From: a virus
Taxonomy: Duplodnaviria > Heunggongvirae > Uroviricota > Caudoviricetes
Virus record (IMG/VR): IMGVR_UViG_2563366960_000002
Reading direction: 5' to 3' (one strand)
DNA: 64,000 nt
Program-made: the position numbers and the translations under genes
In this document: piece after piece, positions 12,028 to 13,304 of the stretch
Layout: the number at the start of each line of letters is the position of its first letter
How positions within the stretch are numbered: position 1 is the stretch's first letter
Notes under the pieces: generated by a model
What the model was told of the DNA's origin: nothing
Seen by the model: only the letters and a program-made list of their open reading frames with translations
Databases searched by the model: none

Positions 12028-13002
12028 TTATCCGTTACCGCACGACGGTTTCTGCGTGATAAACGTTTCAAGCATCTTTTCCGCGATTGCCGACCAGGTG
12101 TGACACTGGACCTTTTCAGCATTTTTCAGGCGATCAACGCGAGCAATCACCTCATCCCAATCAATCCGCGACTTGATAACCATATGGTTCACCAAAGCCA
12201 GGCGATCTGGCGGAAGGCAATCGGACGGCGTTAATATCAACGCCCCACACATTGCCGCCTCAAGAACAGTTAATCCAAGGCTTTCGGGATGCGTAACGAT
12301 AAAAACGTCACTCTTACGCAATTCAGCTGCAAATTCGGTTGCTGGTACCGGCGTCCGTCTGTATGGAGTTACCGAAATATTCCCCGGATCAATGGTAACC
12401 AATCCGTCATCGGTCAACGTTCTGGCCTCATACGGAACAGTCAGACGCTGAAGGTTCATAAGGATACTTAAGGAGTGATCAAACCCACTAACATCAAATG
12501 CAGCGTGGTCTACAAAAATACGCAGAACATCGTCTGTTTTGGTTTCCAGATGGAACAGCTCCTGATTCGCTGCCCATCCAACATGTTTGTTAAAGCGATT
12601 ATGACGCTCTAACCTGCCGGGATTATCCAGGTACCGCCAGGTATCATCGCGGACAGTAAAAGTAATATCAACTGGTGCCGAATCCAGCATAGAACCGTCG
12701 TATACCTGAGCTACCCATCCAGTGAATCGACGACGCAGTTGCACGCCTATTTCCCTGGGCACCGTAGTAAAATACCGCAATCCTGGCGCTAAAATGGCTT
12801 TCGCAGAACACGAGAGCGCAGCGGTCAACACAGCTTCAACATAATCCTCCGGGCTTTCGACGCCGGGAGAATATGGACGATGGTATTGCAATGTTACCCC
12901 AGCCTCACTAAAGGCGCAGGCCAGGTTGTAAGCCCACATTTCCGTATATGTTTTCACATCACTGATAGCTTCAAATTTTCGCCCAATGATCAGGATGTTC
13001 AT
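12028..13002 (-). CDS. GT-B fold glycosyltransferase (GT4-like)
   Basis: 324 aa; C-terminal ESLGLTVLEAAMCGALIL matches the E-x7-E signature of retaining GT4 enzymes. Confidence 0.55.
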   Translation of the reverse strand: MNILIIGRKFEAISDVKTYTEMWAYNLACAFSEAGVTLQYHRPYSPGVESPEDYVEAVLTAALSCSAKAILAPGLRYFTTVPREIGVQLRRRFTGWVAQVYDGSMLDSAPVDITFTVRDDTWRYLDNPGRLERHNRFNKHVGWAANQELFHLETKTDDVLRIFVDHAAFDVSGFDHSLSILMNLQRLTVPYEARTLTDDGLVTIDPGNISVTPYRRTPVPATEFAAELRKSDVFIVTHPESLGLTVLEAAMCGALILTPSDCLPPDRLALVNHMVIKSRIDWDEVIARVDRLKNAEKVQCHTWSAIAEKMLETFITQKPSCGNG

Positions 13003-13304
13003 TGCGTCTCCTTTTCCCTGACTAAAAGCTCATCCAGCTTGCTTTTATGTTTGAGCACATAGCCACATATTTTTCCTTTGGAGCTAATTTGCGGAATGGA
13101 ATAATATTCCGAAAATACTAATTCAGCCTTTTCTAAGACAAGTGAAACACCATAGCGCGCAACATGTCTGTCGATCATTTTTGCATCTCTGAGATTACCT
13201 TTAATTGATAGCCAGTCGTTGAGGTACATATGGTTGCGATTGGCTTTTTTCAGCATGTCGCTCAACCAATTTTTATTACGCTTAGTTAGTTTCCGTTGCA
13301 TCAA
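12999..13304 (-). CDS. hypothetical protein
   Basis: 101-aa ORF coupled (4-nt overlaps) between the helicase gene and the GT-B gene. Confidence 0.4.
   Translation of the reverse strand: MMQRKLTKRNKNWLSDMLKKANRNHMYLNDWLSIKGNLRDAKMIDRHVARYGVSLVLEKAELVFSEYYSIPQISSKGKICGYVLKHKSKLDELLVREKETQ

Follow-up and report, generated by a model that had tools for sequence, protein, structure and literature searches.

What the last two genes of a phage helicase operon do is the question raised by a locus in the IMG/VR virus record IMGVR_UViG_2563366960_000002 (Caudoviricetes), of which a stretch of 64,000 nucleotides (nt; hereafter the window) was analyzed. Behind ban, which encodes a DnaB-type helicase, lie a small open reading frame (ORF) and a 324-amino-acid (aa) ORF. 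The initial annotation read them as a GT-B glycosyltransferase of the retaining GT4 type and its 101-aa partner, whose early expression would suit the modification of replicating DNA or of host surface structures. By sequence and position, the 324-aa gene was identified as the dbn gene of a P1-like phage-plasmid, in one orthologue group with P1 dbn and P7 glt, and structural modelling places its product among soluble GT-B enzymes with an invariant E-x7-E nucleotide-sugar motif. With slightly more confidence than doubt, we propose from conserved gene order that Dbn would perform one step of a dispersed phage glycan pathway together with PmgQ, PmgO and PmgP, acting on an acceptor within reach of the cytoplasm, whereas the small ORF is an optional insert linked in position to ban. 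The ban operon of the window contains the following features.

17809..17836, at the start of the ban operon: bivalent C1 operator with the sequence of P1 Oban (Op72ab) (pattern search, P1 comparison)
13301..14671, minus strand: ban, DnaB-type replicative helicase (Pfam); 13301-14665 with the start chosen by the Prokaryotic Genome Annotation Pipeline (PGAP)
13911..13938, minus strand: counterpart of the predicted P1 promoter P2dbn, inside ban, identical to P1 (prediction only)
13522..13554, minus strand: counterpart of the predicted P1 sigma-70 promoter P1dbn, inside ban, one mismatch to P1 (prediction only)
13003..13290: segment of 288 bp without P1/P7 counterpart (local blastn, junction comparison, GC content)
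12999..13301, minus strand: small basic ORF of 100 aa (101 aa if TTG at 13304), optional ban-linked accessory gene, phrog_12809
12028..13002, minus strand: dbn (P7 glt), 324-aa GT-B, GT4-like glycosyltransferase with E240-x7-E248 (ORF, P1 identity, model)
11981..12009, between gene 5 (plus strand) and dbn (minus strand): GC-rich 12-bp hairpin with A and T runs on its flanks (RNA fold)

The coordinates, order, overlaps and motif given in the initial annotation agreed with the ORF listing and the sequence, in which ban (13301..14671), the small ORF (12999..13304) and the 324-aa ORF (12028..13002) are consecutive on the minus strand. The ban product contains full-length DnaB (E = 2.8e-35) and DnaB_C (E = 1.1e-107) domains in Pfam, and its DNA is 98.7-99.1% identical to P1 and P7 ban by local blastn. 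For the small ORF, the ATG at 13301 (100 aa) is a better start than the TTG at 13304 (101 aa), and PGAP uses the same ATG for a 100-aa product in plasmid NZ_KU980950.1. This ATG overlaps the ban stop codon by 1 nt (TGATG), and the small-ORF stop overlaps the start of the 324-aa ORF by 4 nt (ATGA). Shine-Dalgarno-like sequences are present inside the 3' end of ban (AAGAGGA, for the small ORF) and 5' of the glycosyltransferase gene (AAGGAG). Five tRNA genes lie between the C1 operator and ban. Within the C1-repressed ban operon dbn stands last, in translational coupling with its neighbours as originally described. Direct RNA folding of the hairpin at 11981-12009, which lies between the glycosyltransferase gene and the convergent baseplate gene 5, gave -18.9 kcal/mol (z = -5.13), and this element is likely to be a bidirectional terminator. 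A promoter/terminator scan missed this hairpin and found fewer promoter-like sites than in shuffled sequences.

With positions 11900-14700 as the query, megablast matched 18 records of P1-like phages (97-98% identity). The matching gene is called dbn in P1 ('function unknown, possible glycosyltransferase') and glt in P7 ('putative glycosyltransferase'), and the RefSeq name for the same gene in RCS47 is 'glycosyltransferase family 4 protein'. The 324-aa protein shares 96% identity with P1 Dbn over 324 aa and matches phrog_2518 (E = 3.9e-231), and its gene has the same position between ban and gene 5 as in P1 and P7. P1 Dbn (YP_006544.1) and P7 Glt (AAQ07543.1) thus resemble the window gene in protein, position and C1-controlled operon, but the small ORF is absent from both phages. 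P1 Dbn is annotated with eight additional N-terminal residues (MQWNEEKP) before the conserved MNILIIG, from a start that corresponds to the small-ORF ATG of the window; the annotated P1 Dbn start (locus L001, 4105-4128) and the window small ORF (12999-13304) use the same Shine-Dalgarno sequence and ATG. Possibly the P1 annotation has Dbn begin at a remnant or counterpart of the small-ORF start, the true N-terminus being MNILIIG.

Previously, P1 dbn was shown to be non-essential by CRISPR interference, and the same table credits a single-gene knockout study for dbn too (PMC10695390). In the knockout study, 24 mutants without plaquing defect were also unchanged in anti-restriction (PMC9024508); the main text of that paper does not name dbn, and the attribution comes from the table in PMC10695390. 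Our literature search found no publication tying Dbn to an assayed activity. The objection that the ORF might be a conserved P1 gene with a known non-glycosyltransferase role holds in its first half, dbn being a conserved P1 gene, whereas its annotation reads only 'possible glycosyltransferase'. The gene was already catalogued as a possible glycosyltransferase and as dispensable, and the original observation by itself adds little.

Dbn contains the segment THPESLGLTVLEAAMCGALIL, which corresponds to E240-x7-E248. Its C-terminal part alone matches Pfam Glycos_transf_1 (PF00534; E = 2.2e-5), with 24.5 bits against a gathering score of 26.4. Homologues are rare, with only 73 among 5.8 billion proteins, down to 28% identity, and 55 aligned homologues share the invariant residues D102, W143, A144, D175, F234, T237, H238, E240, S241, G243, L247, E248, G253 and L268. 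The AlphaFold (AF2) model built on the homologue alignment (predicted local distance difference test, pLDDT, 94.6; predicted template modelling score, pTM, 0.90) has two Rossmann-like halves, both with an alternating strand/helix pattern. Foldseek comparison with the PDB returned 79 matches at E ≤ 1e-3, and the top 50 listed are almost all GT-B glycosyltransferases. They are led by the GT4 members sucrose-phosphate synthase, BshA, GlgM, PimB' and PimA (E = 1e-9 to 1e-5), and the glycosyltransferase of phage HY126 (9ir0) holds rank 4. With the family profile, the E-x7-E motif of Dbn aligns to GT4-type structures; phmmer and family-profile searches of PDB sequences gave no significant full-length match, the best being the E-x7-E segment (E = 0.004). 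The GT4 enzymes (6kih, 3mbo, 6tvp, 3oka, 4nc9) have the two-Rossmann GT-B fold and the C-terminal E-x7-E in common with Dbn, but share only 10-14% identity with it, and Dbn with its 324 aa is shorter than most of the matched chains (~330-480 aa). The best structural match overall came from the viral models, a 315-aa Tupanvirus soda lake glycosyltransferase (A0A6N1NPH0; TM score 0.80, E = 2.5e-18), which is itself uncharacterised and, as a eukaryotic-virus protein, has 18% identity to Dbn. NCBIfam and PADLOC gave nothing useful for Dbn or the small ORF, and PHROGs assigned both to families of unknown function.

The fold model, the Foldseek matches and the invariant motif therefore establish, at the level of a predicted structure, the GT-B fold and the E-x7-E motif that the initial annotation had assigned to this protein. 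Its assignment to retaining GT4 enzymes was upheld in part: the motif and the nearest folds make GT4 the closest family of Dbn rather than a demonstrated membership, the PF00534 score stays under its gathering threshold, and the retaining mechanism is predicted only. Relatives of Dbn number 131 in IMG/VR versus only 3 loci in 185,579 species-representative genomes, and the family is essentially phage-restricted.

Loci of Dbn homologues in other phages were scanned with purpose-built hidden Markov models (HMMs) for PmgQ, PmgO/PmgP-like proteins, the small ORF and a family designated X189. A lambda-like contig (L017), a P2-like contig (L018) and the E. coli phage EP_H11 (L013) have the gene order PmgO-like, PmgP-like, Dbn, PmgQ-like, with an extra weakly GT-A-like gene between PmgP-like and Dbn only in L017. 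In about 20 non-redundant loci, among them lambda-like and P2-like phages, EP_H11 and large aquatic phages, the Dbn homologue is followed within 1 kb by a PmgQ-family ORF, and 13 of these loci have MptE-like PmgO/PmgP genes upstream of the Dbn homologue. The adjacency of Dbn and PmgQ is retained down to ~30% identity in these ~20 loci from very different phage types, which argues for a persistent functional link. In the HK97-like contig L173 the PmgQ-family ORF is 2.3 kb downstream of the Dbn homologue, and the cassette has the major capsid gene on one side and the head-completion and tail genes on the other. In the large aquatic phage contigs a PmgQ-like gene comes after Dbn, and their cassettes also encode a sugar-nucleotidyltransferase/cupin protein, a pyruvyl transferase, GT8-like and GT47-like proteins and methyltransferases. 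Companion genes of the cassettes include a sulfotransferase, an FkbM/RfbT-type methyltransferase, a pyruvyl transferase and a sugar-nucleotidyltransferase; such sulfo-, pyruvyl- and O-methyltransferases are typical of glycan decoration. As an exception, the Stenotrophomonas jumbo phage L014 has a Dbn-like domain within a 552-aa protein. The annotated contexts of EP_H11 and Stenotrophomonas phage RAS14 contained hypothetical proteins only, plus one valyl-tRNA synthetase in RAS14, and the scan of species-representative genomes, with its 3 loci, was uninformative on context.

By gene order, the position after ban is specific to P1-like phages, and the comparative link of Dbn to PmgQ, PmgO and PmgP across phages appears as a new element. 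Early timing in the ban operon thus loses its force as a pointer to DNA or surface modification: the ban-side position is peculiar to P1-like phages, and elsewhere Dbn belongs to multi-glycosyltransferase cassettes, some of them in or beside head/tail modules. A connection of the operon tRNAs with a queuosine-glycosylating GT4 enzyme was also considered and dropped, as the Dbn cassettes elsewhere do not lie beside tRNA genes. In L173, a PmgO-like ORF at 3335-4081 (own HMM, E = 7.8e-36) falls mostly into a gap in the stored annotation that is flanked by the capsid gene and the Dbn homologue. Family X189, which is weakly GT-A-like (Pfam Nucleotid_trans, E = 0.019), occurs inside some Dbn cassettes, and in two P1-like elements without Dbn it lies between the genes for RdgC (hrdC) and the Dmt DNA methyltransferase (L178, 4303-4989; L005, 695-1291).

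In the window, pmgO, pmgP and pmgQ are on the same strand as dbn, 6-9 kb away (3536-6094).

6235..6251, plus strand: C1 operator corresponding to P1 Oppp (Op83), with one mismatch to P1, upstream of pmgN-O-P-ppp-Q
5432..6094, minus strand: pmgO, 220-aa MptE-like protein (phrog_4603, named 'alpha-2,3-sialyltransferase') (tblastn, HMM)
4908..5534, minus strand: pmgP, 208-aa MptE-like protein (tblastn, HMM)
4234..4926, minus strand: ppp, lambda-type Ser/Thr phosphatase (Pfam Metallophos, P1 annotation)
3536..4237, minus strand: pmgQ (P7 hdmD), 233-aa GT-A/GT8-like protein with DLDT motif (tblastn, own HMM, phrog_1962 'glycosyltransferase', GT8 profile match)

Here ppp occupies, between pmgP and pmgQ, the slot that Dbn (with or without the extra GT-A-like gene) takes in other phages. 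In P1, the stretch pmgN-O-P-ppp-Q is preceded by the C1 operator Oppp, and the late promoter LPpmgL lies further upstream. The baseplate/tail block 5-6-24-7-25-26 of P1-like phages is bordered by dbn on one side and by pmgO-Q on the other. RefSeq names PmgO 'alpha-2,3-sialyltransferase' and PmgQ 'glycosyltransferase', and the PmgQ profile matched GT8 structures weakly (Skp1 alpha-galactosyltransferase, E = 2.2e-4; a GT8 enzyme, 9e-3; glycogenin, ~0.3). Like dbn, the genes pmgO, pmgP and pmgQ are non-essential in P1, as expected for an accessory pathway.

Plasmids typed as 'mobilizable' include 126 that are PmgQ-positive and 9 that are Dbn-positive, and plasmid counts suggest a distinct P1-related lineage with pmgQ and without dbn. 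In the Dbn-less P1-like element L178, PmgO, PmgP and PmgQ were all absent from the 10 kb fetched on each side. At the position of P1 pmgL-pmgQ this element encodes HicA/HicB, a Tad2-like protein and a RecA-dependent nuclease (17375-20330), and because of these genes the pmgL-pmgQ site looks like a cargo hotspot for defence or anti-defence genes.

In the pathway that we propose, Dbn would work with PmgQ (GT8-like, of GT-A type) and the MptE-like proteins PmgO and PmgP, and not with the product of the small ORF, and the four proteins would assemble a short glycan from host nucleotide sugars. All four are without membrane segment (maximum Kyte-Doolittle 19-residue mean ≤ 1.55), which points to an acceptor that would be accessible from the cytoplasm. 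Together with the companion genes of the cassettes, the site of the L173 cassette and the bordering of the baseplate/tail block by dbn and pmgO-Q, this would indicate a macromolecule as the bearer of the glycan. As such an acceptor we rank a virion protein first and a host envelope glycoconjugate second; the preference for a phage (virion) protein is speculative and tentatively held, and draws on an analogy. In mycobacteriophages, capsid and tail-tube subunits are modified by non-essential glycosyltransferases that the phages encode (Freeman et al. 2023, as cited in PMC12619734). Like these enzymes, Dbn is a non-essential phage glycosyltransferase, and some Dbn cassettes lie in or beside structural modules. 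In contrast to the mycobacteriophage systems, the genes of P1-like phages are split between two C1-controlled operons. Taken as a whole, the proposition that the dispersed four-enzyme pathway of P1 and its phage-plasmid relatives decorates the virion or another phage protein is possible but doubtful.

Several observations weigh against the shared pathway or its protein acceptor. The PF00534 match of Dbn is under the gathering score and most Dbn relatives are without any Pfam match; PmgO and PmgP match Pfam MptE-like, likewise under threshold. In P1, dbn and pmgO-Q are divided between different operons. PmgQ is encoded by 705 PLSDB plasmids versus 473 for Dbn, so that the linkage is not strict, and the Dbn homologue of a Citrobacter plasmid (L016) has no PmgQ within 5 kb. 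Proximity to structural genes is a weak indication, as such genes fill much of phage genomes and late operons host unrelated morons. No glycan has been reported on P1 virions, and the enzyme activity of all family members is predicted.

Unlikely, but the strongest of the alternatives, is the modification of a host envelope glycoconjugate (lipopolysaccharide (LPS) core, undecaprenyl-linked O unit or enterobacterial common antigen) by Dbn, with or without PmgQ, PmgO and PmgP, at the cytoplasmic face. The resulting receptor change would lead to superinfection exclusion or would keep progeny from being lost on cell debris. The P1 receptor is the LPS core, and a pairing of GT4-like with GT8-like enzymes is also found in the assembly of the LPS outer core, where WaaG is a GT4 and WaaI, WaaJ and WaaO are GT8 enzymes. 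In line with this, the PmgQ profile matched GT8 structures, the LPS-biosynthesis glycosyltransferase 5n80 is among the fold matches of Dbn, and the cassette of the P2-like phage sits in a cargo position beside a KAP NTPase. The predicted sigma-70 promoters inside ban could also allow expression in lysogens. Against this reading, the main promoters of both operons are C1-repressed in lysogens. Members of the family are present, too, in large aquatic phage contigs that encode RecA, helicase and terminase themselves, and within a head-tail module, places in which surface conversion is less expected. The four soluble proteins come without a flippase or other membrane component, and they do not match the gtrABC type of O-antigen conversion (GtrA flippase, GtrB GT2 enzyme and GT-C transferase): Pfam found no Gtr-type domains, and none of the four has a hydrophobic segment. 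Only 3 loci occur among species-representative bacterial genomes, so the Dbn family is not a borrowed host LPS gene.

We consider it improbable that the Dbn enzyme of P1-like phages acts without partners, with a small molecule, a host protein or an RNA as its acceptor and with a synteny to PmgQ, PmgO and PmgP that is historical only. The separate operons of dbn and pmgO-Q would fit such a solitary enzyme, as would the ~230 PLSDB plasmids with PmgQ and without Dbn and the one Dbn homologue without PmgQ nearby; moreover, its closest folds act on small molecules (sucrose-phosphate synthase, BshA, GlgM and a tetrahydrobiopterin glucosyltransferase). A merely historical association is argued against by a Dbn-PmgQ adjacency held to such low identity in diverse phages, and by the retention of all four genes in P1.

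Replicating DNA was among the candidate targets of the initial annotation. Developed further, this reading would have Dbn, with help from the 101-aa protein, glycosylate phage DNA early in infection, as an anti-restriction hypermodification like that of the T4 alpha/beta-glucosyltransferases. We regard this as very improbable. The known pathways of phage DNA glycosylation depend on a hydroxymethylase, a thymidylate-synthase homologue or a 5-methylcytosine (5mC) dioxygenase, whose gene usually neighbours that of the transferase (bioRxiv 10.1101/2023.12.21.572611). Over most of its length the window matches annotated P1/P7 genes at ~97-98% identity, and neither the Pfam-scanned non-P1 ORFs of the window nor the underlying P1/P7 annotations contained a hydroxymethylase, 5mC dioxygenase or thymidylate-synthase-like gene, in a scan that was not exhaustive and that covered the 64-kb window, with ~30 kb of the genome outside it. 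The Pfam listings of the Dbn cassette loci were likewise free of base-hydroxylating enzymes. As no such partner gene was found, DNA glycosylation by Dbn is unlikely. The scanned non-P1 inserts encode ParA/ParB-type, DUF3892, SH3 and SPFH proteins, and another non-P1 segment holds a tRNA-Ser gene. The segments 33375-36051 and 39134-41711, which lack a P1 counterpart, carry a ParA-like ATPase (351 aa), a DUF3892 protein and a 355-aa protein with a C-terminal SH3 domain.

A role in DNA modification would agree with the co-transcription of dbn with a replicative helicase gene, directly 3' of dmt, whose product has a C5-cytosine methylase domain, and with the adjacency of X189, a family of some cassettes, to dmt in two P1-like elements. 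The known systems, namely T4 alpha/beta-glucosyltransferase, the clusters linked to 5mC dioxygenases (5mYOX) or thymidylate synthases (ThyS), and 5-hydroxycytosine arabinosylation in HY126, resemble Dbn in being phage GT-B enzymes expressed with replication genes, but differ from it in their hydroxymethylase, dioxygenase or ThyS genes. The DNA-modifying GT-B enzyme of HY126 is the fourth PDB fold match of Dbn, whereas the T4 alpha- and beta-enzymes are not among the top 50, although T4 beta-glucosyltransferase was the top match of the DNA GT-B enzymes in the bioRxiv study. The sulfo-, pyruvyl- and O-methyltransferase companions, the unchanged anti-restriction of the 24 P1 knockouts (in a main text that leaves dbn unnamed) and the lack of the small ORF in most dbn-carrying phages also speak against modification of DNA.

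The small ORF turned out to be an optional insert. All 18 phage records align to the window in two pieces, leaving 13003-13290 (288 bp) unmatched, and P1 and P7 have 13 bp at this place. The insert occurs in 52 PLSDB plasmids versus 473 that encode Dbn, so that ~89% of the Dbn-encoding plasmids are without it, and in 14 of the 80 P1-like viral contigs with both ban and dbn. The GC content of the small ORF is 38.9%, compared with 48.7% for ban and 48.9% for the glycosyltransferase gene, and its product is basic (isoelectric point 9.9), matching phrog_12809 of unknown function. A word-indexed search found near-identical copies only, whereas an exhaustive search of 1.84 billion representatives revealed three remote homologues with 35-42% identity; a fourth match, the repeat protein P0081, was doubtful and was not used. 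Two of these homologues lie directly 3' of DnaB-type helicase genes whose products are 76-82% identical to Ban, with the same TGATG overlap, in P1-like elements (RdgC-Dmt-...-DnaB) that have no Dbn and whose next genes are not glycosyltransferases. The third is in an unrelated non-P1 phage contig (L006, 6001-6603), where two paralogues stand in tandem behind a gene for an RlaP-type nucleotidyltransferase and the neighbourhood is free of DnaB genes. An HMM of the small ORF had no match in 26 non-P1 Dbn-homologue loci, and a PLSDB search with a remote homologue returned only the same 52 plasmids. The AF2 model of the small protein (pLDDT 84.7) has three helices, a beta-hairpin and a further helix, without PDB fold match (best E = 0.34), and Pfam gave only a chance-level KaiA_N match.

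These comparisons of sequence and gene order characterize the small ORF as an optional AT-rich insert and a real, fast-evolving gene, tied in position to the DnaB-type helicase and not to Dbn. Its low GC content favours acquisition, whereas the same helicase-coupled arrangement in lineages with 76-82%-identical Ban favours antiquity. The window and P1 junctions share ATGCAA(C/T)GGAA and GGAAAAG; a simple deletion of the small ORF as the origin of the P1-type junction was rejected, since the two junctions are not interconvertible by one event. Most likely, though speculatively, the small protein modulates or accompanies the Ban helicase and is dispensable, a role for which gene order is the only evidence, its model having no known fold. 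The dimorphic ban-dbn junction with its helicase-coupled ORF family is a new element. The partnership with the glycosyltransferase that the initial annotation had assumed was positional only and did not survive these counts (0/18 phage records, 52/473 plasmids, 14/80 viral contigs); that Dbn forms a two-component glycosyltransferase in which the 100-aa protein confers specificity or acts as a chaperone, as the 4-nt ATGA overlap with its suggestion of coupled translation and equal dosage might imply, is the least probable reading of all, given the absence of the small ORF from most Dbn-encoding plasmids, all reference phages and the 26 non-P1 loci, and homologues that without any glycosyltransferase are joined to DnaB genes by the same overlap or stand in tandem in an unrelated phage.

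Other parts of the ban operon also vary. The tRNA genes of the window (14951-17150, minus strand) are Arg(TCT), Tyr(GTA), Thr(TGT), Ser(TGA) and a CAT-anticodon tRNA (P1 trnI, Ile2), and those of the P1 ban operon are Asn, Thr and Ile, so the tRNA cargo of the operon differs among P1-like phages. Upstream of ban, a 275-aa SPFH/Band-7 lipoprotein (Pfam E = 9.7e-31) and a 78-aa hydrophobic protein (15054-16098, minus strand) replace P1 tciA-tciB-tciC, and the segment 15036-16131 is without counterpart in P1. A strong terminator-like hairpin with a seven-T run (TGCCCATCTTCGGGTGGGCG TTTTTTT; 17624-17643, minus strand) is located ~160-190 nt 3' of the C1-controlled ban promoter, near the 'dicF-like region' annotated in P1; no Rfam family was above threshold at this hairpin, which could mark the end of a short leader RNA or attenuate the operon.

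The significance of these findings is modest unless the dispersed glycosylation pathway is confirmed. If the pathway and its virion acceptor are real, virion glycosylation would be seen for the first time in a classical coliphage, and a role would be found for dbn and for three 'putative morphogenetic' (pmg) genes of a model phage. Independently of this, the 100-aa ORF would represent a fast-evolving family of helicase-coupled accessory proteins. Such a pathway would also bear on the interplay with host and immune system of P1-like phage-plasmids, which are common carriers of resistance genes.

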